From: a virus
Lineage: Duplodnaviria > Caudoviricetes
DNA length: 52,837 bases
Reading direction: 5' to 3' (one strand)
IMG/VR virus record: IMGVR_UViG_3300002053_000024
Span: 1 to 52,837 of that record
The translations under genes and the position numbers were made by a program. How positions within the stretch are numbered: the first letter of the stretch is position 1; every line of letters starts with the position of its first letter. This document shows positions 12,927-43,947 of the stretch, piece by piece. A model generated the notes under the pieces. The model was not told where the DNA came from and searched no databases. It was given only the letters and a program-made list of their open reading frames with translations.

Positions 12927-13085
12927 ATGGCAAGCAAAAAGAACGCGGAACGTCGTCGTCGCCTTGCGAACAATCCAAGCGTTCATCCCGAAATGCGTTG
13001 GCTTGTAGGACAGCTAAACGCAAGCGGAGTTTTCGGGACGACAACCACGACGACAAGTACTACCAGTACGACGACCACAACGTAA
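12927..13085 (+). CDS. Unannotated 52-aa protein with a poly-Thr C-tail, probably a capsid decoration protein
   Basis: GGGGGTAACAATG start; MASKKNAERRRRLANNPSVHPEMRWLVGQLNASGVFGTTTTTTSTTSTTTTT*. Confidence 0.75.
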   Translation: MASKKNAERRRRLANNPSVHPEMRWLVGQLNASGVFGTTTTTTSTTSTTTTT

Positions 13086-13129
13086 GCGGTCGTTCTTTGA
13101 CATACACCTTTTAACAGGGGGATTTTGCT

Positions 13130-14903: not shown

Positions 14904-15449
14904 ATGCCTACACCGCCAAGTACAGACAACTACGTTATCGGCAAAGGCGTTATGTCCATTGCCGAATGGTCGGGCGGCGCACCGGGGGCGTATATCGATA
15001 TGGGTAACTGCCCTGTAGTAGACTTGGAACCGACAGTAGAACGGTTAGATCACTTTTCTTCGCGCGCGGAACTTCGCGAAAAAGACAAAAGCATTATAGT
15101 CGAAGTCGGCTACAATTTGACTTTCGATTGCGACGAAATCGCGGCGCGAAATCTGAAACGTTTTCTACTCGGCGACATTACGGGCGGTAACATTGTTTAC
15201 GCAATGCAGAACCCGAACCAAGAATACGCCTTGAAGTTCGTTACCGATAATCCGGTTGGGCCGAACTACACTTGGGAATTTTGGAAAGCTACTCTTGCCC
15301 CCAATGGCCCTATGTCGTTGATCGGGGAAGAATGGATGGTTATGTCATTCCTAGCCGAAGGACTCGCAGACCGCGCGAATCATCCCGAAAGTCCGTTTAT
15401 AACGGTGACAGGAATTACTACCACAACCACTTCTACCACGACAACCTAA
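14904..15449 (+). CDS. Tail tube protein with poly-Thr C-tail
   Basis: NYVIGKG..DMGNC..HFSSR..DNPVGPN..L.P.G..SLIGEEW motifs; ends ITVTGITTTTTSTTTT. Confidence 0.85.
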   Translation: MPTPPSTDNYVIGKGVMSIAEWSGGAPGAYIDMGNCPVVDLEPTVERLDHFSSRAELREKDKSIIVEVGYNLTFDCDEIAARNLKRFLLGDITGGNIVYAMQNPNQEYALKFVTDNPVGPNYTWEFWKATLAPNGPMSLIGEEWMVMSFLAEGLADRANHPESPFITVTGITTTTTSTTTT

Positions 15450-15480: not shown

Positions 15481-15834
15481 ATGAGAAATAGGGAAATCGT
15501 AAAAATCGACGAAGAAGAATTTTCTATCAAGGAACTAACGGTTAAAGAAATTATCGACCTGTATAACGGTATCCTTGAAGAAGACTTGTCGGCAGAAAAC
15601 TTCAAAACACAAATTCCAGAAGTTTTGAAATTGGTCTGTCCCGAATTGACATTGGAAAGGCTACAATCGTTTACACCTTCTGCAATAATGAAACTTTGGC
15701 AAGGATTTACTACTGCGAATTCATCTTTTTTCGACATAGCGCGAACCTTCGGAATCCAACAGTTAGCAGAAGAAGTTCGCGCCAACGTGGTAGAAATTCT
15801 TCGGGGGGAATTTTCAAAGCGTGTTGCAGATTAA
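15481..15834 (+). CDS. Tail assembly chaperone (G-like)
   Basis: Between tube and tape measure; IKELTVKEI and ANSSFF motifs. Confidence 0.8.
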   Translation: MRNREIVKIDEEEFSIKELTVKEIIDLYNGILEEDLSAENFKTQIPEVLKLVCPELTLERLQSFTPSAIMKLWQGFTTANSSFFDIARTFGIQQLAEEVRANVVEILRGEFSKRVAD

Positions 15835-16007
15835 TCGAAGCGGGGCATACCAACGTTCTGAATTATGGTTTTTCCTATTTCCTTACTGCCGTAGAAGTCC
15901 ATGCCGAAATTGTTTTAGACGATCTTAAAAGTACTGCGTTAGCAACGCGTATCGCCTTCGGCTCGGACAAAAAAGAATTCCGACGCTTTATGAAGTTGAA
16001 ATCGTAG
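15803..16007 (+). CDS. Tail assembly chaperone GT extension, reached by a -1 frameshift
   Basis: The -1 frame overlapping the chaperone end (CRLIEAGHTNVLNYGFSYF...) has no start/RBS of its own; G6 run at 15803-15808. Confidence 0.65.
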
Positions 16008-18464: not shown

Positions 18465-19091
18465 ATGGCAATTACATTAGGCGGCATATCACTACCGGAC
18501 GTTGTTATAGAAAATGAATTTTCACAACGACAGGTAAGGGCAGTAGTAGAATTTTCTTTAGGGGGATCGCCGCTTATTTGGGAAGACAATTATTATGGAA
18601 AGGATATTACTTTAGTTGGCGCAGACGATTTCGCTTGGATCGACCGAAGTACATTGCAGCAGTTATTTGCTATAGCAGGCGTACCGAACGCGTTTTATAC
18701 TTTGGATTATGAAGGGGAACTTTACAGCGTTCGATTTAAACATGAAATGCCCCCAGTAATATCTGCTACGCCTATCGTACCAAGGCCAAACCACGACAGC
18801 GGCGACTATTACAATAATTTGGAAATCCGGTTAATGGAAATCGAACCGGAAAGTATCAGTATTAGCATAAGCCAAAGCAGTAGTAGCGAATCGGAAAGCA
18901 AGTCTTCCGAATCGTCGAGTAGCGAAAGTTCGCAAAGCAGTAGTTCTTCTTCGGAATCAGTTAGCAAGTCAAGTTCTTCCGAATCAAGCGTAAGCGTATC
19001 GTCACAAAGTAGCGAATCGTCCGAATCGTCTTTTCCGATAACAACGACAACGACGACAACTACTACCAGTACGACAACGACGGGAACATAG
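18465..19091 (+). CDS. Distal tail-like protein with a Ser- then Thr-rich C-terminal extension
   Basis: ITLGGISLP..SLGG..GKDITL..AWIDRSTL; last ~80 aa mostly Ser/Glu, then TTTTTTTTTSTTTTGT. Confidence 0.7.
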   Translation: MAITLGGISLPDVVIENEFSQRQVRAVVEFSLGGSPLIWEDNYYGKDITLVGADDFAWIDRSTLQQLFAIAGVPNAFYTLDYEGELYSVRFKHEMPPVISATPIVPRPNHDSGDYYNNLEIRLMEIEPESISISISQSSSSESESKSSESSSSESSQSSSSSSESVSKSSSSESSVSVSSQSSESSESSFPITTTTTTTTTSTTTTGT

Positions 19092-20551: not shown

Positions 20552-23500
20552 ATGGGTTGGCTCGGTAATTGGGCGTATCGTCGCAAGATTGTTATTCCCG
20601 CGTCAAAGATCGATGATACGTTAAATAACTTCCCCTTGCTAATAATATTCGGCCCGTCCGATACGGACTTTCACGCCGAAATGACTACAAGCGATTGGGG
20701 CAAGATAGCTTGTACGACCGATGATGGAGTAACGCAGATAAAGGGGGTAGTAAACCGATCCCGCAGTTCCCCCGATAATCATTGGTCGGGTACAGTAATA
20801 GTTCCGCAGATAGATAAGAACGTAGATACAATTCTTTACTTCTATTACGATTCTTCCCAAGCTTTTAATACTACTTATTGGGGAAGCGCACAACACCCAA
20901 CGAATTCGCCTGCCGCCGACGTATGGAATTCAAATTTTATCGGAGTATATCAATTTGGACAAGCCCCTTCGACCGGGGACGAACTTTGGGATTCTACCGG
21001 CAACGATAACTACGGTGATGCTATCGGGGCCGTATCGCGCGTAGACAATGAATTTGGCGCAGCTTGGAATTTCGATGGTTCTACCGGTTATGCAGAAGTA
21101 TTTGATACTTCGCCCTTTGTCGGCCTTTCTGCTATTACTATTGAAATTCGATTTAAGAAGGATTCTGAAATTGATTGGATGAAGTTAGTAGACCTTCGTA
21201 AATCCGATCTTTCAAACGATGTCTTTCGAATCTACTTGGACGACGATGTAACCGACCGCGATTTTGATTGTCAAATGTTCAATGATTCGGATGCCGTAAT
21301 GTTTACGCTTCATTCGAACGGGGGGTTCAATAATGACGAATGGTACACGCTTCAAGTTACTTATGATAAAAATACCAATACTGCACGAATGTACGTCAAT
21401 GGTGAATTTCGCGACGAAGTTACAGGGACAAGCGAAGACCTTAATTCTTCTACCGATAACGGACTTTACTTCGGAAGAATACCAACGGGTAGCGGTCATT
21501 TTTTAGACGGGCAACTTTTTGAAGTCCGCTTTTCTGATATCGCCCGCCCCGTCGCGTGGTTGAAAGCAACGCATCTTAGTTTATCAAATGAACTAATCAC
21601 AATCGAAGAAGAAAACAGCAGCGAATCGAGTTTTTCGCAAACAAGCAAATCGAGCAGTTCCGAAAGCAATAGTTCTTCTTCCGAATCGTCCGGTTCTTCT
21701 TCTTCCAGTTCCGAAGACAGTAAAAGCCAATCGTCCGCTTCCGATGGATGGTTGCCGGGATACCGCTATAGAGTAAAATTAACTATCGATAACACGAAGG
21801 TTGATGGCGACCGGACAAATCAACACGCGGGCATACACATTAGCGCAGACAGCGGCCCGTCAAGTCAAGACCTTACTTGGCTTTTTGATTGGTTGCCAAA
21901 CCCGCGCGATTGGCGAAGACTTGCGTTTACACAAGGCGACGGGGTTTCGCGTCTATATGCAGACGTAGAACGGTGGACACCAGAAGACAACGAAGCTTGG
22001 ATATGGGTTGGTGATAGTACAGGCGCGTGGACGTGGTTTGGTTCATCCGATACGGAATTCTATTTATACTTCGATCCACTTACTTCCGACGAAACTTATA
22101 TTAGCAAGGGTGGTGGTGTTGGCGGCGACGCTTATACTTCTTCTTTACCTTATATATTTAATATAGACGAAGATGCAGTAGAAAATAAATTTCAATACGA
22201 CAGCGGTTATGCGGATTCCGCCAACGATTTACAAATGTTTGGCGAATGGATGCCCGAACATTTTGTAGAAGGGCCAAACGGACATAGGGCGCTAGTATTT
22301 AACAACGGGGAAGGATTTAGATTTTTACGTGGGGCATCTAATGATTTTAGTCAATTAAAGGGGGCAACTACCGGCATTTCTATTGAAATGCTGATTAAAT
22401 TTACTGCTACTCCGCCACAATTAGATACCATACTTGATTTTTCAGAAATAGGCAGCCGTGGCGTGGCAAGAGTAGTAAAAGTACGTTATTCGTCAACAAA
22501 TGGAATTATACTTATTGTTTTTGATTCCAGTAATAGTGAAATAGATATTCTAAATACCGCTTGGTTTCCTTCAATCGGAACTTGGTATTATGTAGCCCTT
22601 ATGTATAATCCAGTTGGTACGCAGGCAGTATTACAAGTTAATACTACCGAACAAGCCAACGATACTTCTTTTGGATCGGGACAATTAGCAGGCGGGGGAA
22701 CGGGAAATACTATATACATAGGCGCTAGCGCAAGCGCAGATGCAAGCGACCAACAGAATACACGATGGTCGAACGTAGAAATAGCAAGAATAGAATTTAG
22801 CAGCACAAGTAGGGGAAAGGCTTATCGTGATACCCAATACTATCAATATATAGACGACGCGATTACATGGGGGGCGTTAGAAGGTGATGTTTCCGAAAGT
22901 CCGTCGTCGCTATCATGGAGTAGTAGCCTTAGTTCTTCTTCCAATTCGTCAGAATCATCGGCAAGTAGTATATCGTCTACGTCGTCGAGTTCGTCCAGTT
23001 TAAGTGTTTCCAAAAGTTCTACTTCTTCTTTGTCTGAATCCAGTTCGTCGCAATCAGTTAGCAAAAGTTCCAGTTCCGAATCGTCGGTATCGTCGGAATC
23101 CAGTACCAGTAGTTCTTCTTCGTCCGAATCGTCTACGTCGTCGAGCAGCGAATCAAGCGAATCAAGCCGAAGCAAGATTAGCGACGTTGCCGGGATTATC
23201 GGACATATTGGCGGAATGGGCGAACAAGCCTTCGCCGCGAATATAAACCCATTGGGAATTCAAAACCATATTACTGCTATTAATACTTTAGTCGAACCGG
23301 TGCTATCGCAGATAACCGCTATAAATGAATTAAGCGGCGACCCTGCTAGCGCAGTAATCGTAGCAACGAACGAAATAAGCGATAAGGACATAGCGCAGGG
23401 AATAGTAAAGAACTTAATCACAATCGGATCATACGGCGCGCAGTTTCAAAGCGTTGATTGGAATATATTTTTGGACGGGGTTAGCATCCGTAACAAGATA

Positions 23501-28286: not shown

Positions 28287-28300
28287 TAAGGGGGGTAGGT

Positions 28301-28711
28301 ATGGCAGAAGAACAATTCCCGCATATAGTACTACCGGAATACGAAGGCCCGGAACGAAGGCGGACGTACCAATGCTTCTGTCATCCTAAACACCAAAAAG
28401 CTATTACTACGTTGGAAAAGCGCATGGATAAAAACGAAGACAGATTGGGCGGTACTGTACCGTGGAAAATATTTATTCCGATTATGGCCCCGCTAATGCT
28501 ATTGTTTGTCGCTGCGCTTTGGGGGATATTCGACAAGATATCCCAAATAAACGCAGATATGGCGGCTTTAAACACGCGTGCTATAACAACAGAAGAAAGG
28601 GTTGAACGAACGAACAATAAGATAGACAAATTGCACGACCAGATAGAAACGATAAAAGTCGAAATGCGGAAGTTAAACGGACACCATAAAGCAGGGGAAG
28701 CAGGGGGGTAG
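28301..28711 (+). CDS. Single-TM coiled-coil membrane protein (possible lysis accessory)
   Basis: YEGPERR motif, TM segment WKIFIPIMAPLMLLFVAALWGIF, coiled coil. Confidence 0.55.
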   Translation: MAEEQFPHIVLPEYEGPERRRTYQCFCHPKHQKAITTLEKRMDKNEDRLGGTVPWKIFIPIMAPLMLLFVAALWGIFDKISQINADMAALNTRAITTEERVERTNNKIDKLHDQIETIKVEMRKLNGHHKAGEAGG

Positions 28712-30986: not shown

Positions 30987-30997
30987 AAGGGGACAAA

Positions 30998-31630: not shown

Positions 31631-31633
31631 TAA

Positions 31634-32362: not shown

Positions 32363-33003
32363 AAATTTGCGTAGTCGGTTGGTATTTCGACAGGGAATTT
32401 ATACGTCTTCTTCATTTAGTGAATATTCACTATCCAGTATTTATTGTCTGTCACCGTCCGCCCGAATACTACTTCGATTTGCCTTTCGTGGTAACGGATA
32501 ACGTGGGTTTGGAATTCGGGGCGTATTCTTGGTATCTTGATTATGCTTGGGACGGGCATAGCAATGTTTTCTTTACCCACGACGATACAAAAGTGGAAGA
32601 CATAAATACTTTTCACGCGATAGCAGAAATACCGCACGATTGCGCGTATGTTTTTCGTGACGAAGCGGAAGAAAAGGCAAACGGCGGAAAGCATGGAAGG
32701 GCCATTTTTTGTTCTTCAGCCTTTCTAAAAAAACTATCCGAAGACGGGGGCTTTTGGTACGACGAAGAAAATACAGGATATAACGGAAACGGGCAACCGC
32801 GACCGATTCGCGCAGATGGTATGCCAATGGATTTTAACGCAGGCATTTTCACGTTTCATAAATACTTGGGAAACGTGCGCGACCAAAAGATAGGATTGGA
32901 CGTAGTAAACCGTGTCTTCGTTGATTCATTCGAAGCAGGCAGGCGGGGAACATGGCGACATAAGGAAAGGGAAAAGGCGCGCTATGGAAGAATACGACCT
33001 TAG
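32359..33003 (+). CDS. Putative GT-A glycosyltransferase
   Basis: NVGLEFGAY and VFFTHDD motifs; within the GT cluster. Confidence 0.6.
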   Translation: MKICVVGWYFDREFIRLLHLVNIHYPVFIVCHRPPEYYFDLPFVVTDNVGLEFGAYSWYLDYAWDGHSNVFFTHDDTKVEDINTFHAIAEIPHDCAYVFRDEAEEKANGGKHGRAIFCSSAFLKKLSEDGGFWYDEENTGYNGNGQPRPIRADGMPMDFNAGIFTFHKYLGNVRDQKIGLDVVNRVFVDSFEAGRRGTWRHKEREKARYGRIRP

Positions 33004-33664
33004 CATAATAATTCCGGTTCTGAATTCGCATGAGGTAGTAAAACGACAAATGCTTTATTGGAATACGTTAGACCTTTGTTGCTGCGAAATAATTCTGGTA
33101 GACGATGGAAGTACCCCGCCTATATTGCCTTACTTCGATTCGAAATACGAACTAACGGTTATCTATACAAACGATCCGCGCCCTTGGTCGCAACCTTGTG
33201 CGCGCAATCGGGGTGCAGAAATATCACGATCCGAAATGCTACTTATGACAGACATAGACCATATTATTTCGCAGGAACAAATAAACGCGGGGAAAGCATT
33301 TAATGGGGACAAAATGATATTCCCGCGCCAATGGGCGGTATTGGATACAGCGGGCGGACTACACCAAGAAAAAGAAGTACTATTACAATATGGATTAGAC
33401 CCCAAGCTTTACGAACAACGCGGTCTTAGCGGCGGTTCGCACGCCAATACTTTTTGTATGCAGAAAAGTATTTTCGACGAACTAGGCGGGTATGATGAAA
33501 GCTTTTGTGGAAAATACGGGGGCGACGATACGGATTTTAACGACCGATACGGTCGATTGCATAGACAAGGGCTAGTGGCGCGGCACGTTGTAGGCCCGCG
33601 AATGTTTGTGTTTCCCGATCCGCGAAGGGACGCACAAAACCTTTTTCATTCTTTAAGGGGGTAG
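32984..33664 (+). CDS. GT2 family glycosyltransferase
   Basis: LSIIIPVLN, EIILVDDGS, ARNRGA, MTDID, GGYDESF..YGGDDTDF. Confidence 0.9.
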   Translation: MEEYDLSIIIPVLNSHEVVKRQMLYWNTLDLCCCEIILVDDGSTPPILPYFDSKYELTVIYTNDPRPWSQPCARNRGAEISRSEMLLMTDIDHIISQEQINAGKAFNGDKMIFPRQWAVLDTAGGLHQEKEVLLQYGLDPKLYEQRGLSGGSHANTFCMQKSIFDELGGYDESFCGKYGGDDTDFNDRYGRLHRQGLVARHVVGPRMFVFPDPRRDAQNLFHSLRG

Positions 33665-33667
33665 TAA

Positions 33668-34930
33668 ATGAAAATCGGTATCTTGACACATTTTCTCGGA
33701 TTCCAAGATTCGTACGCGCTACACGTCGGATGGTTGGAACGGGCAAAATTGTTGGAGTACTTCGGACAGGATTTCGACTTTCTGGTAGATCACAAATGCC
33801 CGGAAGGTCTTTATCCAAATCAAAAATCGATTCTTCCCCGAATAAAAGAAAGCCGGGACTTCGAAGCAAAGGTAACTTTTTTCGAAGAAGCGTACAAAGC
33901 TTTGCTAAAAGATTACGATGCTATTCTTACCGCCGATATCATGTACCAATCAAAGAATAACTTCCTTTGCTATAACCAAGCGGTACGTAATGCGGCGAAA
34001 GAATTAAAAGCGCATTGGTATCATTGGATACATTCAAGTTGGAACTATCGGCCTAATGGCATACGGTATCCAGAAACACTTCGCTACGATTACATGGAAG
34101 GTAGTAAAATAATCTACCTTAGTTCCTACGAATTAAATCAGGTAGCACAAATGTATAATACTTCGCCGAAGAACGTCTATTGTGTTTATAATCCAAAGGA
34201 CGTTCGAAGCTTTTTTGACTTCGATCCGTTAGCGTGGAAAATATGCAAAGAATTAGAGCTATGGAAAAAGGACGTTGTTCAAATTTTCCCGCATTGTTCT
34301 ACCCGAATGAAAGCAAAAGGGGTACACGCGATAGCTAAAGTATTTTCAGCTTTGAAACGTGCGGGCCTGCAAGTTGCTATTATCTTTGCCAACGCCAATT
34401 CCCGAAGCGTGCAAAATGAATTAGCAGAATTCAAAAAGCACCTTGAAACAAAATACAAACTTTATGAAGGCTACGATTTCATTTTTACTAGCGATATGAT
34501 GGAAAATTTTAAACCGCTTCCACGTAAAGCCGTAGCCGATCTATATAGGGTAGCTAATTTATTTGTCTTCGGCAGTTGGCGCGAAACAGTCGGCAACGCA
34601 TTTCAAGAAGCAATGATTAGCGATAACCTTTTGGTTCTTAATCAGAACGTCCCTTCAAACGTAGAAATGGCGGGGCGTGATGCTATCTACTTCGAATATC
34701 ATTATGTAACCCCCGGCAAATTAGCTAGCGGGCCTGCTAAAATGCAAAGCGGGAATTTTAAGGTTATCAAATACGGGGATGGATCATTGGAACACGAAGA
34801 AGGATATTTTGATAATATCGCAAAGCGCATTATTGGAATACTACCTTCGCGCGAACACATTTGGAAATTCTCTTATGAATGGATTTGGGAAAATCAGCTA
34901 AGACCGCTTTTGTACGGGGTGGATATATGA
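33668..34930 (+). CDS. GT-B (GT4-like) glycosyltransferase
   Basis: MKIGILT, WIHS, KGVH, DLYRVANLFVFGSWRETVGNAFQEAM. Confidence 0.8.
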   Translation: MKIGILTHFLGFQDSYALHVGWLERAKLLEYFGQDFDFLVDHKCPEGLYPNQKSILPRIKESRDFEAKVTFFEEAYKALLKDYDAILTADIMYQSKNNFLCYNQAVRNAAKELKAHWYHWIHSSWNYRPNGIRYPETLRYDYMEGSKIIYLSSYELNQVAQMYNTSPKNVYCVYNPKDVRSFFDFDPLAWKICKELELWKKDVVQIFPHCSTRMKAKGVHAIAKVFSALKRAGLQVAIIFANANSRSVQNELAEFKKHLETKYKLYEGYDFIFTSDMMENFKPLPRKAVADLYRVANLFVFGSWRETVGNAFQEAMISDNLLVLNQNVPSNVEMAGRDAIYFEYHYVTPGKLASGPAKMQSGNFKVIKYGDGSLEHEEGYFDNIAKRIIGILPSREHIWKFSYEWIWENQLRPLLYGVDI

Positions 34931-35610
34931 TTTCCGTTTGTACTGTCTTCTATCCTTGGACAAAGGAAATCGAGCGAACCGAAGAACTATTCGACGCTTT
35001 GATTCCTTCGATTCAACGATGCGAAGAAAACAACCGAATTGAACTATCCATAGTCGATACCGGGACAAGGGATATATTCAACCGCAGGCGGAAGCACGAT
35101 TGGATAAATTTCAAAGAACGGATACTAAAGGAACTGCCGACCGCCAAATATCAAATAGCCGATTGTCTGGTAGGCCAAAAATGGCATATGAGTAAAGCCT
35201 TAATGATAGCGGCAGCGCAGGCGAAAGGGGAACTATTCTTTTTCAGCGGAATTGATTTAATACTTCCAAAAGGCTTTGTTCATATGATGGATTTATTCGT
35301 AGGCAAAGGCGAAGTTTGGGTTCCGCTTTGTTATAATTTACTACCCGGTCAAGAATGGACGATACCAGAAAAGCCCGAAGAAATGAACGGTTGGCGCGTG
35401 GCAAAGGGAATAATGGGAATACGGCGCGAAGACTTTTACAGCGTTGGCGGGTATCCGGTAGAAAAAATAGGTTTTCGCGTTGGTATCGACAATGCCCTTT
35501 TGCAGAAGTGTTCTAAAAAATACAAGGTGAATAGCGTTAAATGCGAAGGGCTTTTTCATTTACACCATGCGTATTCGAAGGCATCTTTGCCGGGAAAAAT
35601 AGAAAGGTAG
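34927..35610 (+). CDS. GT-A glycosyltransferase (GT2/GT7-like), paralog of 31634-32362
   Basis: FYPW, SIVD, LFFFSGIDLILP, EVWVP, DFYSVGGYP, FHLHH are shared with the paralog. Confidence 0.75.
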   Translation: MISVCTVFYPWTKEIERTEELFDALIPSIQRCEENNRIELSIVDTGTRDIFNRRRKHDWINFKERILKELPTAKYQIADCLVGQKWHMSKALMIAAAQAKGELFFFSGIDLILPKGFVHMMDLFVGKGEVWVPLCYNLLPGQEWTIPEKPEEMNGWRVAKGIMGIRREDFYSVGGYPVEKIGFRVGIDNALLQKCSKKYKVNSVKCEGLFHLHHAYSKASLPGKIER

Positions 35611-35615
35611 TAAAT

Positions 35616-36713
35616 ATGAAACGGATAATGGTTATGGGCGGCGACGGTTTCTTGGGTTGGCCTACGGCTTTGTACTTCTCTAATCAAGGGCATTTCGTAA
35701 CAATCGTCGATAGCTTTGCAAGGCGCAATGACGATATCGCGTTGGGTATTGAATCCTTAACCCCTATCCGTACTATGAATGAACGCTTAAACGTATGGAA
35801 GAATAAGACAGAACACAAAATACTTTTCAAGCGGCTTGATTTGTCGAAGAACTATCGTGGGCTTTTGGGAATATTGATTAAGCTTCGACCGGACGTAATT
35901 ATTCATTGCGCGGAACAACGCAGCGCGCCTTATTCCATGAAGTCTTTTTATCATAGGCGCGCAACCATTGATAACAACGTAAATGCTACCCATAATCTTT
36001 TGTCGGCTATTGTGGAAAGCGGACGCGATACGCACTTGATACACGTAGGCGCGGTTGGATTGATAAACGGCGCGGGAAGTGTTTTCGACCTTTCAAAAAT
36101 ATTCGATTGCCAAATGATAAATTTTTACAATTATAACGACCAAGTTAGAATTTCCCAAGTTAGATTGGGGATCATTTGGGGAAGTAGTACTATCGAAACA
36201 GAAATGGACGAAAAACTTGTTAATCGATTTGACTACGACGGAGAATACGGAACGGTTATCAACCGCTTTATCGCGCAAGGGGTTTGCGGGCATCCATTGA
36301 CGGTTTACGGGGACGGTACGCAGAAGCGAACGTTTATCCATATCCAAGATAGCATAGAGTTTATAAAACATATGATCGACTATCCGCCCAAGTGCGGCGA
36401 ACCGGTAGATTTTATGGACGGGACAGTAGAAGAACTATCCATTATTCAAATAGCGGAACTTGTTTCGTCGATAACCGGAGCGCAAATAAAATTTTATCAG
36501 AATCCGCGAAATGAAAGCATAAAGGAAGAAGTAGAAGAAAAGCTATTGTTAGGCGGGCTTAAACATAGCGAAGGCAGGCGAATAACCGAAAAGGACATAG
36601 AAGAAATTTGCAAGTTGGTTTATCGGTACAAAACACGGTGCGATTTTTCGAAGATGTTAACGACAACGGTATGGAATAAGGACAAAAAAATTGATCTGGA
36701 AGGAACGTCATAA
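35616..36713 (+). CDS. sqdB: UDP-sulfoquinovose synthase-like extended SDR with an altered active site
   Basis: GGDGFLGWPTAL, SLTPI, AEQRSAPYSMKS, NNVNATHNLL, NRFDYDGEYGTVINRF, PLTVYG, NPR; canonical GTMG and YHxxK appear here as GAVG and FDLSK. Confidence 0.85.
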   Translation: MKRIMVMGGDGFLGWPTALYFSNQGHFVTIVDSFARRNDDIALGIESLTPIRTMNERLNVWKNKTEHKILFKRLDLSKNYRGLLGILIKLRPDVIIHCAEQRSAPYSMKSFYHRRATIDNNVNATHNLLSAIVESGRDTHLIHVGAVGLINGAGSVFDLSKIFDCQMINFYNYNDQVRISQVRLGIIWGSSTIETEMDEKLVNRFDYDGEYGTVINRFIAQGVCGHPLTVYGDGTQKRTFIHIQDSIEFIKHMIDYPPKCGEPVDFMDGTVEELSIIQIAELVSSITGAQIKFYQNPRNESIKEEVEEKLLLGGLKHSEGRRITEKDIEEICKLVYRYKTRCDFSKMLTTTVWNKDKKIDLEGTS

Positions 36714-36714
36714 A

Positions 36715-37395
36715 ATGATAGTAATTATTATTGGTATGCACCGGTCGGGAACGTCCGCGCTTGCGGGCCTGCTACATTCAAATAATATTAGCATGGGAAA
36801 GGACGGGGACTTTTACCCGCCGCCTGCAAAGGAAAACCCGAAAGGGTTTTACGAAAACGTGCGCTTCCGTAGGGTTAACGACGCTATACTAGCCCTTCAT
36901 GGATACAAAGTAAAATCATTCAGCCCGACGATTCCAACCGTCGTGTCGGCAAGTGATGAAATAAATACTGCTATGGGAAATCTGATTTTGGAATACTGCC
37001 CGCTTGGGAATTGGGGATGGAAAGACCCGCGAACCTGTTTAACCATATACGCTTGGCTTTCCATATTGGAACGAATCGGAAAGTTGAAGAAAGTAAGGAT
37101 AGTAGTTATCGAACGATCATACGAAAGCGTGGCCCGATCTATGCGCGCGCGGGGCAACAAAGAACAATATGATTTGCAGTTTGTAAAATTAGCAAGTCAA
37201 TACCAGTTTTATTTCCAAAAAGGATTTATTTCTTTTGTGAAGGAACACGGCGAAGATATTCCGATCACTAGCATTAATTTTCGCGAACTTATTTTCGATA
37301 CGGCAAATACTGCTATTAAGCTTTCCGATTTTCTGGAACACGATATAACAGATATTTCCTTTGTCGAAGAAGGGATAGCTAAAAATGTCCCGTAA
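36715..37395 (+). CDS. PAPS-dependent sulfotransferase family protein
   Basis: GMHRSGTS 5'-PSB loop, NPKGFYE, WGWKDPRT, R..S 3'-PB motif. Confidence 0.88.
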   Translation: MIVIIIGMHRSGTSALAGLLHSNNISMGKDGDFYPPPAKENPKGFYENVRFRRVNDAILALHGYKVKSFSPTIPTVVSASDEINTAMGNLILEYCPLGNWGWKDPRTCLTIYAWLSILERIGKLKKVRIVVIERSYESVARSMRARGNKEQYDLQFVKLASQYQFYFQKGFISFVKEHGEDIPITSINFRELIFDTANTAIKLSDFLEHDITDISFVEEGIAKNVP

Positions 37396-37927
37396 CGATC
37401 TTTGGATAGACGTTAAAATGCCCTACGCCGAAGGAAAGAAGCTTGCCTACGCATATAATCGGGCTATGGAAAGTACTACTGCCGAATGGGTACTTTTTTT
37501 AGATCAAGACCTTTTCATTTGTAATAAAAGATGGTATGAAATGTCAATACGCGCTATCCGTCAAGTTGGACACGACGCGGGTTGGATTACTGCCGTTACC
37601 AATCGGATAGGAAACCCCGGACAACGTGCGCCTAATGCACCGGCTACGCATGATCTTGTCGAACATATAGCATATGCTAAGCATATGTACGAAACGTTCG
37701 GCGATCAAGTAGTACGGTTTAGGGGCGCTTTGTGCGGGTTTTTTATTTTGACTTCCAAGACCGCTTGGAAAAAAGCAGGCGGATTTAACGAAGGACGTAC
37801 CGGCTTGAACGGTGTAGATAATGATTATAGCAGGGCAGTACAACGGGCAGGCTACACGCTTTACGGTATGCCGGGGCTTTATTTTTATCATATGTGGCGC
37901 GAAAAAAATAGATTAATGAAATGGTAG
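37385..37927 (+). CDS. Small GT2-like glycosyltransferase
   Basis: AYAYNRAM, WVLFLDQD, WKKAGGF, VDNDY, YFYH. Confidence 0.75.
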   Translation: MSRNDLWIDVKMPYAEGKKLAYAYNRAMESTTAEWVLFLDQDLFICNKRWYEMSIRAIRQVGHDAGWITAVTNRIGNPGQRAPNAPATHDLVEHIAYAKHMYETFGDQVVRFRGALCGFFILTSKTAWKKAGGFNEGRTGLNGVDNDYSRAVQRAGYTLYGMPGLYFYHMWREKNRLMKW

Positions 37928-37931: not shown

Positions 37932-39470
37932 ATGGCATTATTAGACGCTTGGACTTCCGCCGCCGCTACTTCGCTAGCAAAAAGTGTTAGCGCCGGTACG
38001 GATCGATTATTGGTAGTAGTAATCGGTGCGGAACATTCTGCCGCCGTTACCGTTACTGGTGTTACCTACGGCGATCAAAATATGGTTCATGCCTACGACG
38101 GTTCCGTATATGCCGAAGCAAGGGGAAATGCCGGGGGCGGATTCGAAGCCCTTGTGTCCATTTGGTATTTATTAGACGATGAAATAGAAGCGGCAAGTGG
38201 AACTACTATTACACCGTCTTTTTCCGCTACCCCCGCCGACGTTGTTGTTGCAGCGGGTTCATACGACAATATGGAACAAGCCGGGGGAACTACTACCGTA
38301 CTTGAATGTCATATTGCCGAAACTGCCGCAGCAACACCAAACCCGCTTTCGGTAACAATGGGAAATGGCGTAGCAGGGGATTTGATCGTTGCCGGGGCTA
38401 CGGCAGGCAACGCTACTACTTATACATGGACAGGGGTTAGCGAAGTATTCGATCAAATAGCAGCGTCAAGCTGTACTTCGGGCGGTACGCTTATTAGAAC
38501 CGGTACGGGCGACGTTGTTTGTGCGCCGACTTGTGCAAGCCAAAACCGCGCGGGAACTGCTGCCGTTGTATTTGCCCAAGCAACTGCAAGTAGTTCTTCT
38601 TCTTCGTCCGAATCAAGCCAATCAAGCCAAAGTTCCATTTCAAAACCGGAAGGGACAGCGGTTTGGGGGCATCATACTAGCGTAGAAGAAGATTGGGATA
38701 GAAACTTTTGGGGTGAATGGTCGGGCGACGGTTTAATACTTGGTTCGGGCGATAACGAAGTAATGCGCCTTGAAGCCGGTCAATCAATGGAAAGCATAAC
38801 TTGGCATTTTGGATCGGGCGAAGTAGCAATAATTAGGGACAAATATCAAACCGGGGGAAATTGTGGTGATTTGATAACGGAATACAAAACCGCTGCTACA
38901 GAAGCGGCTTGCGACGCGGCTTCGTATATTGGTTATACGGGGCCGTTTACGTCGTTAGGTTGGATAAAAATTAGGGTAAGAAGATTGGAAGGGGGCGAAA
39001 TGTGGACATACGGTAGTATAGTAACTTTGACTTCCGGTACAGCGCATCTTTTGGCATCCGGTTTGCCAAGTGGCTTAAAAGAAATTGAAATTCTTCTGAA
39101 TGGGGTTAGCACCAACACGGCAAACCAACCGCCCGTTATTCGATTAGGGGACGCGGGGGGAATAGAAACAACGGGGTATACTAGTATTGCGCGGGTAGGT
39201 GCAAACACTTCCGCCCAAACTGCATATTTTCAATTCTTCCGCGCAACGGATTTCGCTGCGGCAGAAGCTTTATCGGGGGTTATGCGTTTAGCCCGTTGGG
39301 ATTCGTCTTTGCATTTGTGGCTAATGACGTGTTTAGCAACAGAAGCGGCGCAGATAAGCCATTCCACCGGAAGAAAAACATTGTCAGAAGAATTAACCCA
39401 AATTCAAATTACTACCCCCGGTGGAGCAGCGACTTTTGATTTGGGTTCAGCGCGGGTTAGATACCGATAA
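37932..39470 (+). CDS. Modular virion/adhesion protein with a short poly-Ser linker
   Basis: Ala/Thr/Gly-rich beta domain (GTDRLLVVVI), ASSSSSSSESSQSSQSS linker, further beta domains, fiber-like C-terminus. Confidence 0.6.
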   Translation: MALLDAWTSAAATSLAKSVSAGTDRLLVVVIGAEHSAAVTVTGVTYGDQNMVHAYDGSVYAEARGNAGGGFEALVSIWYLLDDEIEAASGTTITPSFSATPADVVVAAGSYDNMEQAGGTTTVLECHIAETAAATPNPLSVTMGNGVAGDLIVAGATAGNATTYTWTGVSEVFDQIAASSCTSGGTLIRTGTGDVVCAPTCASQNRAGTAAVVFAQATASSSSSSSESSQSSQSSISKPEGTAVWGHHTSVEEDWDRNFWGEWSGDGLILGSGDNEVMRLEAGQSMESITWHFGSGEVAIIRDKYQTGGNCGDLITEYKTAATEAACDAASYIGYTGPFTSLGWIKIRVRRLEGGEMWTYGSIVTLTSGTAHLLASGLPSGLKEIEILLNGVSTNTANQPPVIRLGDAGGIETTGYTSIARVGANTSAQTAYFQFFRATDFAAAEALSGVMRLARWDSSLHLWLMTCLATEAAQISHSTGRKTLSEELTQIQITTPGGAATFDLGSARVRYR

Positions 39471-39490: not shown

Positions 39491-39832
39491 ATGGCAGATT
39501 GGACATACAATTTGAATCAAGATTGCTTGGACATATTTACCCAAGTAGTAGAAGATATTAAACCCGGCGTTTCCGGTTGGAAAGGGGTAGAAGACGAAAC
39601 TTATGCAATGAACGCGTTAATCCTAATTGCTATGCAAGAATTAGGATACGATATGGAAGACGAATGGGCAGTAGTAGTTCAAAACAGAATTTACGAAGTA
39701 TGGACAGATGAACTAGGCCCGCCGGGGGAAGGTATAGACAATTCGGGGGCGCGCGAATCGACAGCGGTTCCCGGTCAAGTTAACGTAGCAAATGCCGCAA
39801 CGTTAGACTACTTCGAATCGAAGCTTGACTAA
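39491..39832 (+). CDS. Hypothetical acidic protein
   Basis: AAGGA RBS; TAATG coupling to the next gene. Confidence 0.65.
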   Translation: MADWTYNLNQDCLDIFTQVVEDIKPGVSGWKGVEDETYAMNALILIAMQELGYDMEDEWAVVVQNRIYEVWTDELGPPGEGIDNSGARESTAVPGQVNVANAATLDYFESKLD

Positions 39833-42800
39833 TGGCGTATAAAAACATCGACATAGATAATGGCGGTACTACTACCGGTTATGATCCGACTTTAACGGTT
39901 CCTGCTAATGCCGTTGAAGGCGATTTGATGGTTGCTATCGTCTTCACGTCGGATAATAACCCTGATATAACACCTACCCCGCCGACGTTGGAGACATGGA
40001 CGCTTTGGCCATCTGCCTCTATGCCGGTTGATGGGACGGCTGCGGTATCGCCGCCTGCTGCTTGGATTTACTGGAAAGATGTATCGGCAGCAGACGAAGC
40101 CGCTGCCGGTTCGCGTAGCTATACGTGGACGTTTAGCGGTGCGGAAGAACAAATAGGCGTACTTTTACTATTCGATCCCGGTCAAGTCGGACAGTTTGCC
40201 AAAAATGAATTGACGGGAACGCGAACTACTATCGATGCCCCTTCGGTAGATACGACAACCCAAAGTGAAATTGTTTACCATTGTGCTATTAAAGACGGGT
40301 ATGTTCAGTTTAGCGGAATCCCGTCCGGTGATGCTACAAGGGCAGATTTAACAACAGGTGGAACAAGCGACGCGTACTTTGCCCTAGCGATTGTCGAAGA
40401 AACATACGATTCGCCTACGACAACGGGGGCAAAGACGTTCACCTTGGCAACTAATGAAGCCAATGGTTTTACGTTTTCGGTAACGGACGAAGGGGCGCAA
40501 TCGTCTTCTTCTTCGTCCAGTTCTGAATCGTCACAATCAAGCAGTTCGGCGGAATTCTGCGAAATAGAAGATATTGCCGCCGCTGCCGGTTCGGAATCCA
40601 GTACAAGTAGTATTTCTTCTTCGTCGCTATCCTCGTACAGCTCCAGCAGTTCAGAGTCAAGTCTGTCGTCGTCATCTTCGTTATCATCGTCATCGCAGAG
40701 TTCCCAGGAGTGCCAGGATCTGACGATTCTGGATGAAGGATTTGAAGGTACAGGATACGAAAATACGTGGGTTGAGACTGAGGCAAATGGCGGACAGATA
40801 GATCCAGATGCATCAGCTCCTGCCAGTGCGCCGCATTGGTGGGGAAGCCAGTCACTGTTCATAAATGTGCCGACGTCTGGAACAGATATTCAGGCGTATG
40901 CAACACATACGTTTGTAGACGATTATCAACGACTGCATATAAGAGTAGAGTTTAATGTTCCGACTGCGGGTACAGTGAACTACCCGCGTGAGATCCTGAC
41001 TCTACGTAATGCTGCTGATGAGGATCTGCTAAAACTGACGTGGCTACGTACTGCGCCTCCTGAATTTATGGCGCGGCTGGCCATAGGCAGCCAAAACTGG
41101 CCCTCAACTGATACTACGTTAGACAATGATGCTAATCATGTATTAGAAGCGATTTATGACTACCAGAGTGATGAAGTACAGTGGTGGGTTGATGGAGTAC
41201 TGGAAGACACGATCACCCTGAGTGATTATTCGACAGCCTCAGATGGTAGAGCGAAGAAAGTCCTGCTTGGGCAGCTTACCGGCCCTCCCGATCCGACTGG
41301 AGGCGATTATTACATTGATAATGTAGTAATAAAGGACTGTACGTTTTATAGTCAAAGCAGCCTGTCGTCCAGCTCGGAGTCGTCCAGCTCTGCGGAGAGC
41401 ACCAGTTCGTCATCAAGCAGCTCGCTGTCCAGTTTGTCAAGTTCGTCTGAATCGTCGCTGTCGAGTAGTTCTGAAAGCAGCGAATCGTCGAGTAGCGAAT
41501 CAAGCCTTAGTTCTTCTTCGTCCAGTTCTTTGTCAAGCGAAAGCAGCAGTTCGGAATCCAGTTTATCGTCGAGTTCGTCCAGTTCGGAAAGTTCGCTTTC
41601 ATCCAGTAGCGAATCCAGTTTAAGTAGTAGTTCTGAAAGTTCGCTTTCGTCGCTTTCATCCAGTAGCGAATCGTCGCTATCCAGTTCTTCGGAATCGTCG
41701 TTATCATCCAGTTCCAGTAGCGAATCGTCGCTATCCAGTTCTTCGGAATCCAGTTCCAGTAGTATTTCTTCGTCGTCCGAATCGTCGCTTTCTTCGTCGA
41801 GCGAATCAAGTTCCAGTTCGGAATCCAGTTCGTCGGAATCGTCGCTATCGTCGAGTAGCGAATCAAGCCTTAGTTCTTCTTCGTCCAGTTCGGAAAGTTC
41901 GCTATCCAGTTCGTCTTCGTCGTCGTTAAGTTCCAGTAGCGAATCGTCTACGTCGTCGAGTTCATCCAGTAGCGAATCCAGTAGCAGTAGTTCTTCCAGT
42001 TCGTCGCTAAGTTCCAGTTCGGAATCGTCCGAATCGTCCACGTCGTCAAGTTCGGAATCTAGTATTTCTTCTTCGTCTGAATCGTCTACGTCGTCCAGTT
42101 CCGAATCTTCGGGTTCTTCTTCGTCGATAAGTTCGGATAGTTCTTTTTCTTCGTCGTCTAGTTCGCAATCCAGTTCGTCGAGTCTATCCAGTTCTTCTTC
42201 GTCGAGCGAATCAAGCCTAAGTTCCAGTTCGCAATCGTCGCTAAGTTCCAGTTCCCTTTCTTCGGATAGTTCTTCTTCGTCGCTATCCAGTTCGTCGGAA
42301 TCGTCCACTTCGTCGAGTAGTGAAAGTTCTTCTTCGTCTGCTATTCCTTGGTTTCAGCCGGTAGAACATATCGTACAAATATGTACCGTCGATTCGGGAA
42401 GCGTGGACGATATACGCGACGATGGGGGTGTGGTTCTACAATTAGCAGAATGTACCGGCGCGCCTGCCTTCACGCATGATTTTTACTTCGAAGGTGTAGC
42501 AAATGAAGAATTACAAGTAACCTTTGATTATCGCTATTCGGGCAATCTTGGTCATAATATAAAAATCCGCATTTACAATTTTAATACCCCCGGTTGGGAA
42601 GACTTAACTGCAAATACAAAGGACTTTAACGATACCGGGGCTTCGTATGAAATTGTATCCTATCCGCTTCCGAATCCGCTTACCAATTATCTTAGCAGCG
42701 GGGAAATACGACTTAGGATAGTACACAATACGGCAGGCAATACCGCACATAAATTTTATATCGATTATATCCATTTAAGCCAAACGTCGTCTTCGTCGTC

Positions 42801-43947
42801 GTTAAGCGTTTCCAAAAGTTCTTCTTCCGAATCGTCTACGTCGTCCAGTAGCGAATCGTCGTCGTCTTCGTCGCTGTCGTCTTCGTCGTCGTCGGAATCG
42901 TCTACGTCGTCCAGTTCGCAATCGTCGTTTAGTTCGTCGTCGTCGAGTAGCGAAAGTTCGTCGTCTTCGTCGTCGTCGGAATCGTCGCTAAGTTCGGATA
43001 GCTCTTTTTCTTCGTCGTCGTCAAGTTCGATATCGTCCAGTAGCGAATCGTCGCTATCCAGTTCTTCGGAATCTGTTAGCAGTAGTTCGTTATCGGTTTC
43101 CAAATCCAGTTCGTCGAGTTCATCCAGTAGCGAAAGCTTGGCTTCGCCTTCGTCTGAATCCAGTATTAGCAGTAGTTCGGAATCGTCGCTATCCAGTTCT
43201 TCTTCGTCGGAATCCGTTAGCAAATCAAGTTCCAGTTCCAGTAGCGAAAGTTCGCAAAGTATTAGTTCTTCTTCGTCGGAATCGTCCAGTTCCAGTAGCG
43301 AAAGTTCTCTATCGTCGCTGTCGTCGAGTTCGTCGAGTTCGTCGGAAAGCTTAGTAAGCGCAAGTTCGGAAAGTAGCATTTCTTCCCTGTCGAGTTCGTC
43401 GGAATCGTCTTCGTCCAGTAGCGAATCGTCTTCGTCCAGTAGCGAATCCAGTTCGTCCGAATCGGTTAGCAAGTCGAGTTCGTCCGAATCCAGTAGCAGT
43501 AGTTCGTCGCTATCCCGTTCGTCCGAATCCAGTAGTAGCAGTTCTTCTTCTGAATCATCCAGTAGCGAATCGTCGGAATCGTCCAGTTCGCAATCCAGTT
43601 CGTCGAGTTCGGAAAGTTCCAGTTCCAGTAGCTTTTCTTCTTCGTCGCAATCCAGTTCGTCGAGTTCGGAAAGTTCCAGTTCCAGTAGTTCTTCTTCGAC
43701 AAGTTCGCTGTCGTCGAGTTCGTCGAGTCTATCTATATCCAGTACGTCTTCCAGTTCCGATAGTTCTTATTCGTCCGAAAGCGTTGAAAGCAAATCCAGT
43801 TCGTCGAGTTCTTCGTCATATATACCGGTCGATCCGGTAATAGTCGTACGGTCGAAAGCAAAACCGCGATATATTGCAAAGCAGAAGAAACAAAAGTATA
43901 TTTCCGCAAAGGCAAAACCGCGATTCATCACAAAGGAAAGGTCGTAA
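39832..43947 (+). CDS. Giant serine-rich repeat protein: three globular domains separated by poly-Ser/Glu tracts, with a basic C-terminal tail
   Basis: Domains at about 39832-40497, 40708-41350 (lectin/LamG-like) and 42343-42777; Ser tracts of up to several hundred residues; C-terminal KAKPRYI..KAKPRFI repeat. Confidence 0.8.
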   Translation: MAYKNIDIDNGGTTTGYDPTLTVPANAVEGDLMVAIVFTSDNNPDITPTPPTLETWTLWPSASMPVDGTAAVSPPAAWIYWKDVSAADEAAAGSRSYTWTFSGAEEQIGVLLLFDPGQVGQFAKNELTGTRTTIDAPSVDTTTQSEIVYHCAIKDGYVQFSGIPSGDATRADLTTGGTSDAYFALAIVEETYDSPTTTGAKTFTLATNEANGFTFSVTDEGAQSSSSSSSSESSQSSSSAEFCEIEDIAAAAGSESSTSSISSSSLSSYSSSSSESSLSSSSSLSSSSQSSQECQDLTILDEGFEGTGYENTWVETEANGGQIDPDASAPASAPHWWGSQSLFINVPTSGTDIQAYATHTFVDDYQRLHIRVEFNVPTAGTVNYPREILTLRNAADEDLLKLTWLRTAPPEFMARLAIGSQNWPSTDTTLDNDANHVLEAIYDYQSDEVQWWVDGVLEDTITLSDYSTASDGRAKKVLLGQLTGPPDPTGGDYYIDNVVIKDCTFYSQSSLSSSSESSSSAESTSSSSSSSLSSLSSSSESSLSSSSESSESSSSESSLSSSSSSSLSSESSSSESSLSSSSSSSESSLSSSSESSLSSSSESSLSSLSSSSESSLSSSSESSLSSSSSSESSLSSSSESSSSSISSSSESSLSSSSESSSSSESSSSESSLSSSSESSLSSSSSSSESSLSSSSSSSLSSSSESSTSSSSSSSESSSSSSSSSSLSSSSESSESSTSSSSESSISSSSESSTSSSSESSGSSSSISSDSSFSSSSSSQSSSSSLSSSSSSSESSLSSSSQSSLSSSSLSSDSSSSSLSSSSESSTSSSSESSSSSAIPWFQPVEHIVQICTVDSGSVDDIRDDGGVVLQLAECTGAPAFTHDFYFEGVANEELQVTFDYRYSGNLGHNIKIRIYNFNTPGWEDLTANTKDFNDTGASYEIVSYPLPNPLTNYLSSGEIRLRIVHNTAGNTAHKFYIDYIHLSQTSSSSSLSVSKSSSSESSTSSSSESSSSSSLSSSSSSESSTSSSSQSSFSSSSSSSESSSSSSSSESSLSSDSSFSSSSSSSISSSSESSLSSSSESVSSSSLSVSKSSSSSSSSSESLASPSSESSISSSSESSLSSSSSSESVSKSSSSSSSESSQSISSSSSESSSSSSESSLSSLSSSSSSSSESLVSASSESSISSLSSSSESSSSSSESSSSSSESSSSESVSKSSSSESSSSSSSLSRSSESSSSSSSSESSSSESSESSSSQSSSSSSESSSSSSFSSSSQSSSSSSESSSSSSSSSTSSLSSSSSSLSISSTSSSSDSSYSSESVESKSSSSSSSSYIPVDPVIVVRSKAKPRYIAKQKKQKYISAKAKPRFITKERS
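41352..42340 (+). repeat. Degenerate Ser-codon tandem repeat tract (SSSSESSL units)
   Basis: For example a 45-nt identical block at 41484-41528 and 41847-41891. Confidence 0.9.
42778..43818 (+). repeat. Second long degenerate Ser-codon repeat tract
   Basis: Recurrent TCCAGTAGCGAATCGTC / TCGTCGAGTTC units; SVSKSSSS peptides. Confidence 0.9.

Follow-up and report, generated by a model that had tools for sequence, protein, structure and literature searches.

Serine/threonine tracts on particle proteins and a late glycan gene block suggest that a tailed phage may O-glycosylate its own tail and fibers

The question raised by this locus is what a block of glycan-related genes might act on when it sits among the particle genes of a tailed phage. 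The locus lies in a virus record from IMG/VR (IMGVR_UViG_3300002053_000024; Duplodnaviria, Caudoviricetes), which we analyzed whole; its 52,837 bases, referred to here as the window, have an estimated completeness of about 62%. Six proteins encoded in the window carry dense serine/threonine tracts, and among the glycan-related genes are two putative glycosyltransferases (GTs) that we call GT420 and GT756. An original prediction had proposed that the phage builds an acetylated and sulfated or sulfonated O-glycan over its head, tail and long appendages, as a shield or to ease movement through anionic EPS and sediment. Based on gene neighborhood and composition, we consider it fairly probable that, as its late genes are expressed, the phage attaches O-glycans to its own particle proteins within the host cytoplasm. 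The O-glycan part of the proposal gained its support from comparative genomics, namely the link of tracts with GT420 and GT756 and the conserved ends of tail tube homologues, and not from chemistry.

Tracts, defined as at least 10 Ser or Thr in 12 residues, occurred in 6 of 44 plus-strand open reading frames (ORFs) of the window, compared with 2 of 1822 ORFs in 80 random viral loci. All six are where the original prediction had placed them. They fall into two compositions: three Thr tails, with a Thr fraction, T/(S+T), of 0.87–0.93 and no Glu, and 17 Ser tracts, with a Thr fraction of at most 0.10. The Thr tails are on the tail tube protein, a candidate acceptor that would be present in many copies per particle, on the Dit-like distal tail protein, and on a 52-aa protein (coordinates of all features in Table 1). 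The last 15 residues of the 52-aa protein are Ser or Thr, mostly Thr (tail aa 36–52, nt 13032–13082; Thr fraction 0.87), and the protein had no match in Pfam or PHROG. The Dit-like protein bears both tract types, with an N-domain (aa 10–126) followed by a Ser/Glu linker (about aa 128–190) and a Thr tail (aa 191–208). Ser/Glu linkers are also found in the 1423-aa protein (aa 374–387 and 802–872), and the 1371-aa protein has Ser/Glu regions of 69, 330 and 346 aa (aa 222–290, 507–836 and 985–1330), with a match to GH114_assoc at aa 837–986 (E 7.4e-5). The window's major capsid protein has no Ser/Thr tail, which leaves the 52-aa protein as the sole basis for a coat over the head; that part of the proposal was not supported.

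The composition of the tracts appears to be under selection. Tract codons, including the Ser codons of the 1371-aa protein, are mixed synonymous codons, and tandem DNA repeats in the tracts are weak, which argues that tract composition is selected at the protein level rather than arising as slippage runs. The tract proteins also lack features of secreted proteins, as had been noted for Sec/SecA2 signals: a Kyte-Doolittle scan found no N-terminal hydrophobic segment in any of them apart from a borderline one in the 512-aa protein, and no LPXTG motif was seen in their sequences. The 512-aa protein had no family match in Pfam and PHROG scans, and we rejected a common N-terminal domain for the 512-aa and 1371-aa proteins because there was no similarity between them. 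More generally, PHROG and Pfam scans were mostly blank for the globular parts of the fiber proteins and for small Ser/Thr-tailed proteins of other phages.

Two further sets of ORFs involve the 1371-aa gene. Long antisense ORFs within it (40305..43472, minus strand; for example, 41352–42308, 318 aa) most likely reflect the low complexity of the Ser-coding DNA and are not taken to be genes. A plus-strand ORF (43874..44299; likely start ATG at about 43949) overlaps the end of the gene and weakly matches the podophage fiber-tail adaptor family Gp77 (E 8e-5, below cut-off); its product may help attach the Ser-rich protein.

Tail tube proteins related to that of the window keep the composition of the tail but not its sequence. 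Among homologues with 40%–100% identity, all 107 out of 107 end with at least seven Ser/Thr in the last 12 residues; the tails are mostly Thr, with about a dozen of Ser, and the exact sequence drifts. Such conservation of composition fits an acceptor or a brush and argues against a chance appendage. Relatives of the phage show the same on further proteins. In G001 and G002, whose tail tube is 52% identical to that of the window, the tail tube, the capsid protein, two fiber proteins and a 198-aa protein of the head region all end in poly-Thr. G001 encodes a GT420 homologue (29% identity by tblastn, 33% in pairwise alignment), and the G002 record stops before that position. A third relative, L106, encodes a GT420 homologue and a tape measure protein 64% identical to that of the window; here the tail tube, a 347-aa tail protein and a head-decoration-like protein end in poly-Thr.

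GT420 belongs to a phage-specific family in which tracts are strikingly frequent nearby. The family has 557 representatives at E ≤ 1e-30 among 1.84 billion searched, and its nearest Atlas clusters are viral. Neither GT420 nor GT756 had a tblastn match in 50,697 deposited phage records. The metagenome-assembled genome labels of GT420 matches are scattered across phyla and say little on host. We compared 80 viral loci from a family-alignment search with a control set of 80 random viral loci, retrieved by means of an arbitrary 15-mer; this set replaced tape-measure relatives, of which three loci were too few to serve as a control. A tract ORF was present in 61 of 80 GT420 loci (112 of 1802 ORFs) versus 2 of 80 control loci (2 of 1822 ORFs; Fisher p 3e-24). 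Dereplication at 90%, 70% and 50% identity left 67, 46 and 13 clusters, of which 49, 35 and 10, respectively, showed the link. Tract ORFs were mostly upstream of GT420 (97 upstream, 12 downstream; 78 within 2 kb upstream) and on the same strand (104 out of 109). C-terminal Ser/Thr tails showed a similar pattern, with 86 ORFs in 56 of 80 GT420 loci compared with three ORFs in 2 of 80 controls. The link covers siphovirus-like phages, sheath-bearing phages and phages with tails like those of gene transfer agents (GTAs).

A typical GT420 locus has two to three tandem small proteins directly upstream, each with an N-domain of about 50 residues and a (Ser-Thr)n tail of 40–100 residues. Examples of this small-protein family, which has no PHROG or Pfam match, are in L053 (8057–9038), L060 (8580–9293), L078 (8126–9096) and L082 (8245–9150). 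The genes surrounding the conserved GT420 vary widely between phages. In two GTA-like-tail phages (L024, 15133–19654; L025, 8458–11520), the genes downstream of GT420 homologues encode further GT1, GT2 and GT17 transferases, methyltransferases, a PseB-like dehydratase, an RmlD-like reductase and a UDP-glucose dehydrogenase.

The predicted structure of GT420 is that of a retaining glycosyltransferase. Its AlphaFold2 model (predicted local distance difference test, pLDDT, 91) has a GT-B/GT4 fold, with MshA (Foldseek E 1.5e-11), GlgM and BshA as closest PDB entries and matches to WaaG and PimA as well; the Pfam match to Glycos_transf_1 reaches only E 0.0038, below cut-off. Across 42 family sequences, E306 and E314, eight residues apart, are invariant, as are R213 and K217. 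We take the two glutamates to be the EX7E motif of GT4 retaining glycosyltransferases. GT420 combines the predicted GT-B fold with the two-glutamate motif and the basic phosphate-binding residues of GT4 retaining enzymes.

GT756 shows a weaker link to tracts, with a different composition. Its Pfam matches are to Glyco_transf_9 at aa 139–291 (E 3.8e-4, below cut-off) and Glycos_transf_1 at aa 640–736 (E 1.7e-6), and profile matches to GT4 structures are confined to the C half. We considered a bacterial autotransporter heptosyltransferase (TibC/Aah) and rejected it on sequence searches: an NCBIfam scan at E ≤ 0.01 gave only NF038229, and TibC was not among the matches listed by a PDB profile search at E ≤ 1. 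Relatives of GT756 are found in other large phage glycan clusters, which are rich in transferases and methyltransferases and lie beside lectin-domain fiber genes. Tract ORFs occurred in 7 of 24 GT756 viral loci versus 2 of 80 controls (p 4e-4; 5 of 15 clusters after dereplication at 90% identity) and in 8 of 27 metagenome GT756 loci of at least 10 kb, several of which duplicate viral loci. In the pooled viral and metagenome loci, with duplicates kept, 21 tract ORFs were upstream (12 within 1.5 kb) and four were downstream. Homologues of the window's 512-aa protein are found in two GT756 loci (L236 and L251). With both enzyme families counted, the co-occurrence of Ser/Thr tracts with glycosyltransferase genes raised in the original prediction was supported in the viral loci compared.

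Tract composition was split by enzyme family. Tracts linked to GT756 are Ser/Glu-rich, and their Thr fraction stays below 0.1 in all 10 tract ORFs from viral loci and in 14 of the 15 from metagenomes, whereas those linked to GT420 are Thr-rich, with a Thr fraction of at least 0.3 in 107 of 112. None of the GT756 loci has GT420 within 10 kb and none of the GT420 loci has GT756. In the window the two enzymes occur together, as do the two kinds of tract. From this split we infer that GT420 may serve Thr tails and GT756 Ser/Glu linkers.

The glycan block of the window is consistent with soluble, late-expressed enzymes. It was described as nine contiguous genes; the block is real, but we count ten soluble glycan-related ORFs in 28716–37927, co-directional with the particle genes. 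No transmembrane (TM)-like segment was found in any of the ten (Kyte-Doolittle scan), and Pfam and NCBIfam scans of the window proteins found no flippase, polymerase or priming transferase families. The Pfam scan covered 42 plus-strand, 14 minus-strand and two further plus-strand proteins. The particle genes form a single co-directional block on the plus strand, from 67 to about 44,578, that comprises large terminase, portal, 1127-aa head-module protein, scaffold, major capsid, tail tube, tape measure, Dit-like and large tail-tip/fiber genes. Between 24.8 and 44.7 kb, sigma-70-like promoter sites and intrinsic terminator sites are fewer than expected from shuffled sequence.

Table 1. Tract-bearing proteins and glycan-related genes of the window
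Feature	Coordinates	Strand	Remarks
52-aa protein	12927..13085	+	directly 3' of major capsid gene; N-terminal part basic; candidate acceptor
Tail tube protein	14904..15449	+	phrog_807, E 2.9e-27; C-terminal Thr tail aa 169–181, end TTTTTSTTTT
Dit-like distal tail protein	18465..19091	+	phrog_4408, E 2.2e-19; directly 3' of tape measure gene
1423-aa tail-tip or fiber protein	20552..24823	+	Pfam Laminin_G_2 E 7e-5 (LamG-like domain); phrog_24698 E 6e-14
GT756, 756-aa two-domain glycosyltransferase	28716..30986	+	N half GT9-like, C half GT1/GT4-like
Hexapeptide-repeat acyltransferase	30923..31630, likely start ATG 30998	+	Pfam Hexapep E 5.8e-23
242-aa protein, paralogue of 34879–35610	31634..32362	+	faint GT-A-like signal, Glyco_transf_7C E 0.06
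214-aa conserved protein of GT756 module	32359..33003	+	homologues in 5 of 24 GT756 viral loci
GT2 (GT-A) glycosyltransferase	32912..33664, likely start ATG 32984	+	Pfam Glyco_tranf_2_2 E 2e-11
GT420, 420-aa GT-B/GT4-like glycosyltransferase	33668..34930	+	phage-specific family
243-aa paralogue of 31634–32362	34879..35610, likely start ATG 34927	+	Glyco_transf_7C E 0.031, Glycos_transf_2 E 0.12 (faint GT-A-like)
SQD1-like short-chain dehydrogenase/reductase (SDR) protein	35541..36713, likely start ATG 35616	+	degenerate UDP-sulfoquinovose synthase homologue
Sulfotransferase-like protein	36691..37395, likely start ATG 36715	+	Pfam Sulfotransfer_3 E 1e-4, below cut-off
180-aa GT2-like protein	37385..37927	+	Pfam Glyco_tranf_2_5 E 2.5e-6; phrog_26101 E 1.9e-10
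512-aa two-domain protein, likely fiber component	37932..39470	+	Ser/Glu/Gln linker aa 218–232
113-aa protein between 512-aa and 1371-aa Ser-rich genes	39491..39832	+	no family match (Pfam, PHROG, NCBIfam)
1371-aa protein, 44% Ser	39832..43947	+	three globular parts, Ser/Glu regions between, basic C-terminal tail

Several of the other genes in the block suggest how a first sugar might be elaborated. The GT2 enzyme is a probable chain-extending enzyme. The hexapeptide-repeat protein matches the NeuD/PglB/VioB subfamily (TIGR03570, E 1.1e-21, below cut-off) and is a probable sugar N- or O-acetyltransferase, which makes the acetylated glycan of the original prediction plausible. The 242-aa and 243-aa paralogues match the same genes in the GT756 clusters of G003b and G005 (tblastn; 36%–37% identity for the former), and the 214-aa protein had no match in Pfam, PHROG or NCBIfam. 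The 180-aa GT2-like protein is 56%–58% identical to proteins in L029 and L030, where it lies alongside GT420, an SQD1 homologue and a sulfotransferase.

Sulfation of the glycan is plausible from the predicted sulfotransferase. The protein scores 23 bits against Sulfotransfer_3 (cut-off 27), with a nearly full-length match (3–212 of 216), and most of the 120 listed among its 545 homologues carry PF13469. HRSGTS, KDPR, R134 and S142 are invariant in 27 sequences, and the first two motifs are presumably the loops that bind 3'-phosphoadenosine-5'-phosphosulfate (PAPS). A model of the protein (pLDDT 92.9) best matched the CurM ST, TPST1/2, Stf1, 3-OST and Stf0 in Foldseek (E 6e-6 to 1e-3, TM about 0.5), so that a sulfotransferase fold is supported at the level of predicted structure.

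The sulfonated alternative, that is, a sulfoquinovose-bearing glycan, fared worse in this phage. The SQD1-like protein is similar to Arabidopsis SQD1 over its full length (E 2.4e-58) and 44%–47% identical to environmental homologues, but its score against NF041015 is 257.7 bits, where the curated cut-off is 575. Alone against nine of nine homologues, it has Thr replaced by Ala, Tyr by Phe and His by Asp, together with a deletion of a loop of about 33 residues: the homologues read HLGT.G, the loop, and PGS.YH.TK, whereas the window copy reads HVGAVG and AGSVFDLSK and lacks the loop. It retains the NAD-binding GGDG motif. The Thr, the Tyr-His-x-x-Lys and the substrate loop are catalytic and substrate elements of SQD1. 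An identical protein sequence is on record from other contigs, so the changes are not a read error. The window copy is probably no longer a working UDP-sulfoquinovose synthase, although its reading frame looks intact, and its sequence would fit either a recent loss or a repurposed pseudoenzyme.

Relatives of the phage have intact copies of the same gene. SQD1 homologues without these changes are present in L029 (12173–13408), L030 (12040–13239) and L033 (15125–16315), and in L029 and L030 the gene order is GT420 (49%–56% identity), the intact SQD1 homologue, the same small sulfotransferase (44%–46%) and the 180-aa GT2-like gene. A sulfoquinovose module therefore exists in the phage group, and the copy in the window looks inactive. 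We also considered whether the GT4 enzyme and the SQD1 homologue could together make a sulfoquinovosyl lipid. This was rejected, as an SQD1 homologue lies beside GT420 in only 3 of 81 family loci (the 80 plus L106), the window, a fourth such locus, has a degenerate copy, and there was no match to an NCBIfam sulfolipid transferase.

Taken together, these genes suggest a possible pathway for a particle glycan. GT420, with its retaining-type GT4 fold, would start the glycan by adding a sugar to the Thr tails of the tail tube, Dit-like and 52-aa proteins, and the two-domain GT756 would act on Ser/Glu linkers, both in the Dit-like protein and in the three large fiber-like proteins. Chains could then be extended by the GT-A enzymes encoded from 32912 and 37385, and perhaps by the 31634/34879 paralogues. 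The hexapeptide acyltransferase may acetylate the sugars, and the sulfotransferase may add sulfate from host PAPS. The tail and fibers would thereby gain a mucin-like brush, hydrated and acidic, for which shielding, low stickiness and first contact with host glycans are candidate roles.

A wider version of this proposal is one that we hold only tentatively. It states that uncultured phages use two acceptor codes, poly-Thr or (Ser-Thr)n tails via GT420 and poly-Ser/Glu linkers via GT756 as initiating glycosyltransferases, to cover heads, tails and fibers with a mucin-like brush that is partly sulfated or bears sulfoquinovose; that the window combines both; and that the system extends to hundreds of phage lineages of several tail types. 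Judged from gene content and tract composition, this generalization is possible but somewhat doubtful.

A number of observations weigh against particle glycosylation by this phage. The whole case is built on gene neighborhood and composition and none of it on chemistry, and genes that would indicate another glycan target could be absent from the incomplete record. The fold of GT420 resembles GT4 enzymes acting on small molecules or glycolipids (MshA, BshA, GlgM, WaaG), with no protein-glycosylating enzyme among its 35 listed Foldseek matches, which extend to rank 50. In the window, GT420 is 14–21 kb from the Thr-tailed genes and not adjacent to them. Tracts are missing from 19 of 80 GT420 loci, and G008, G009 and G010 are tract-free over their whole available records (30–48 kb, 38%–57% complete), which we interpret as the family not always needing such tracts or using other acceptors. 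Only about 30% of GT756 loci show a link to tracts, and G003 and G004 hold large GT756 clusters with no tract in the available fragments. Finally, in the accessible portions of the relevant literature, polyserine linkers with no known sugar occur in bacterial carbohydrate-active enzymes.

Part of this pattern would be expected if the tracts were unmodified, flexible, protease-resistant spacers or entropic bristles and the glycan genes served to remodel host surface glycans, for superinfection exclusion or release, or made a soluble or lipid-bound glycan. The polyserine linkers of carbohydrate-degrading bacteria, as far as the available parts of that work describe them, would be a precedent, and the tract-free clusters and the resemblance of GT420 to enzymes with non-protein acceptors fit as well. 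However, unmodified spacers leave the roughly 30-fold tract enrichment beside GT420 unexplained, along with the upstream, same-strand position of tract genes and the division of Thr and Ser between GT420 and GT756. The lack of membrane-bound transferase, flippase and polymerase genes among the window proteins, and of TM segments in the ten ORFs, also argues against a host-directed pathway, as does the location of the glycan genes inside the late structural block with no excess of promoters or terminators. We therefore regard this explanation as unlikely.

The link between GT420 and tracts could also be real while the tracts themselves are not modified, for example, if both belong to a joint mobile tail-fiber cassette and the enzyme acts on a host receptor or another site on the fiber. 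Tract genes and GT420 do travel together beside fiber and baseplate genes; in the window the enzyme is distant from the Thr-tailed genes, and the mycobacteriophage Che8 uses single Ser-containing ends rather than tracts. Yet a fiber cassette does not account for tails on tail tube, Dit-like and head-decoration-like proteins, for a tail-tube tail that is universal in its family, or for tract composition that follows the glycosyltransferase family, as would be expected from the matching of enzyme and acceptor. The cassette explanation seems to us still less likely than unmodified spacers. Glycosylation of phage DNA at hypermodified bases, as an escape from restriction, is very improbable: DNA-decorating phage glycosyltransferases are well known according to the accessible part of one source (PMC12619734, citing Pyle et al. 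2024) and the record is incomplete, but we found no gene in the window for a hydroxymethylase or other base modification, the locus is within the structural block, and the tract association would be left unexplained.

The remaining genes of the window are those of a tailed phage. The major capsid protein is SU10-type (Pfam E 1.2e-62), and its nearest deposited relatives are actinophage proteins with 31%–37% identity. The 1127-aa head-module protein (7012..10395, plus strand) contains the zinc-metalloprotease motif HEFGH at aa 640. It weakly matches a Pfam domain named for anthrax lethal factor (E 5.4e-5, below cut-off) and a PHROG of head-maturation proteases (E 8e-7), and may represent a large minor head protein that includes a protease domain. 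Just 5' of the tape measure gene, two overlapping plus-strand ORFs (15481..15834 and 15696..16007) occupy the usual site of a frameshift-made pair of tail assembly chaperones. Between the tail genes and the glycan block, a 142-aa protein (28283..28711, plus strand) has one TM-like segment at about aa 58–90, a coiled-coil C-terminal part, and weak matches to Rz-like spanins (E 1e-4); no endolysin was recognized in the window. On the minus strand, from 45.4 kb, are Mre11/Rad50-like, PDDEXK, flap-endonuclease (FEN) and RecA-like genes.

If the phage does glycosylate its own particle, mucin-like brushes of glycoprotein would be present on many environmental phages, and the enzyme families that make them have no characterized member. 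This would change the view of how phage surfaces make contact with particles, host envelopes, proteases and antibodies. Two simple enzyme-acceptor pairs, Thr tail with GT420 and Ser/Glu linker with GT756, could also become tools for cytoplasmic protein glycosylation. In addition, the presence of sulfosugars on phage particles is suggested by three related modules in which the UDP-sulfoquinovose synthase gene is intact.

To our knowledge, glycosylation of particles by a phage's own enzymes has been shown only in mycobacteriophages, at small C-terminal sites. Among other viruses, giant viruses glycosylate their own particles with virus-encoded machinery, as in the chlorovirus capsid and mimivirus fibrils. 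The window would share with them a multi-gene glycan machinery of its own for particle proteins, independent of a host secretory route; the likeness is by description only, as these are eukaryotic viruses with different enzymes and linkages. Serine-rich repeat adhesins of streptococci and staphylococci (GspB/Fap1 type) are glycosylated by GtfA-GtfB, exported by SecA2/SecY2/Asp, and have a signal peptide and an LPXTG anchor. The 1371-aa protein resembles them in its alternation of short and long Ser-rich regions with globular parts and in the Glu, Leu and Val within its tracts, and a predicted cytoplasmic GT4-fold enzyme is encoded in the same gene block. In contrast to the adhesin systems, Pfam scans of the window proteins found no accessory Sec genes, GtfA DUF1975 insert or GtfB partner, no signal peptide or LPXTG anchor was seen, and the tract proteins are parts of a phage particle, not secreted adhesins. 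Compared with the UDP-sulfoquinovose synthases SQD1, SqdB and Agl3, the window copy is homologous over the full length but has lost catalytic residues and the loop.

The closest functional parallel is with the mycobacteriophages, and a literature search in a limited collection found nothing beyond that work on mucin-like or Ser/Thr-tailed phage proteins paired with glycosyltransferases. According to the parts of these papers that are accessible, virion O-glycosylation occurs in Che8, Corndog and Myrna (PMC12619734, PMC12363180, PMC13445384), with glycans attached C-terminally to the capsid and tail tube subunits (PMC12619734, PMC12363180). For both Che8 and the window, the proposal is that soluble glycosyltransferases encoded by the phage act in the cytoplasm on its own particle proteins, with the tail tube C-terminus as an acceptor site. 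Both have GT2 enzymes (Che8 gp109 versus the window GT2 enzyme, E 4.5e-6, 22% identity by blastp), and gp109 is the only one of gp108–gp110 with such similarity to a window protein. The analogy drawn in the original prediction stands at this functional level. It does not extend to the parts. The Che8 capsid and tail proteins end in ...KTGS and ...SDGS with no tract, whereas the window tail tube has a Thr tail and the window capsid has none. By Pfam, the Che8 enzymes are of GT-A types (gp108, GT2 with a methyltransferase; gp109, GT2; gp110, GT25), and the essential glycosyltransferase (gp110, Corndog gp38) has no relative among 44 window proteins (blastp, best E 0.54). As predicted from its genes, the system of the window is an analogue of mycobacteriophage glycosylation built from other enzymes and other acceptors.

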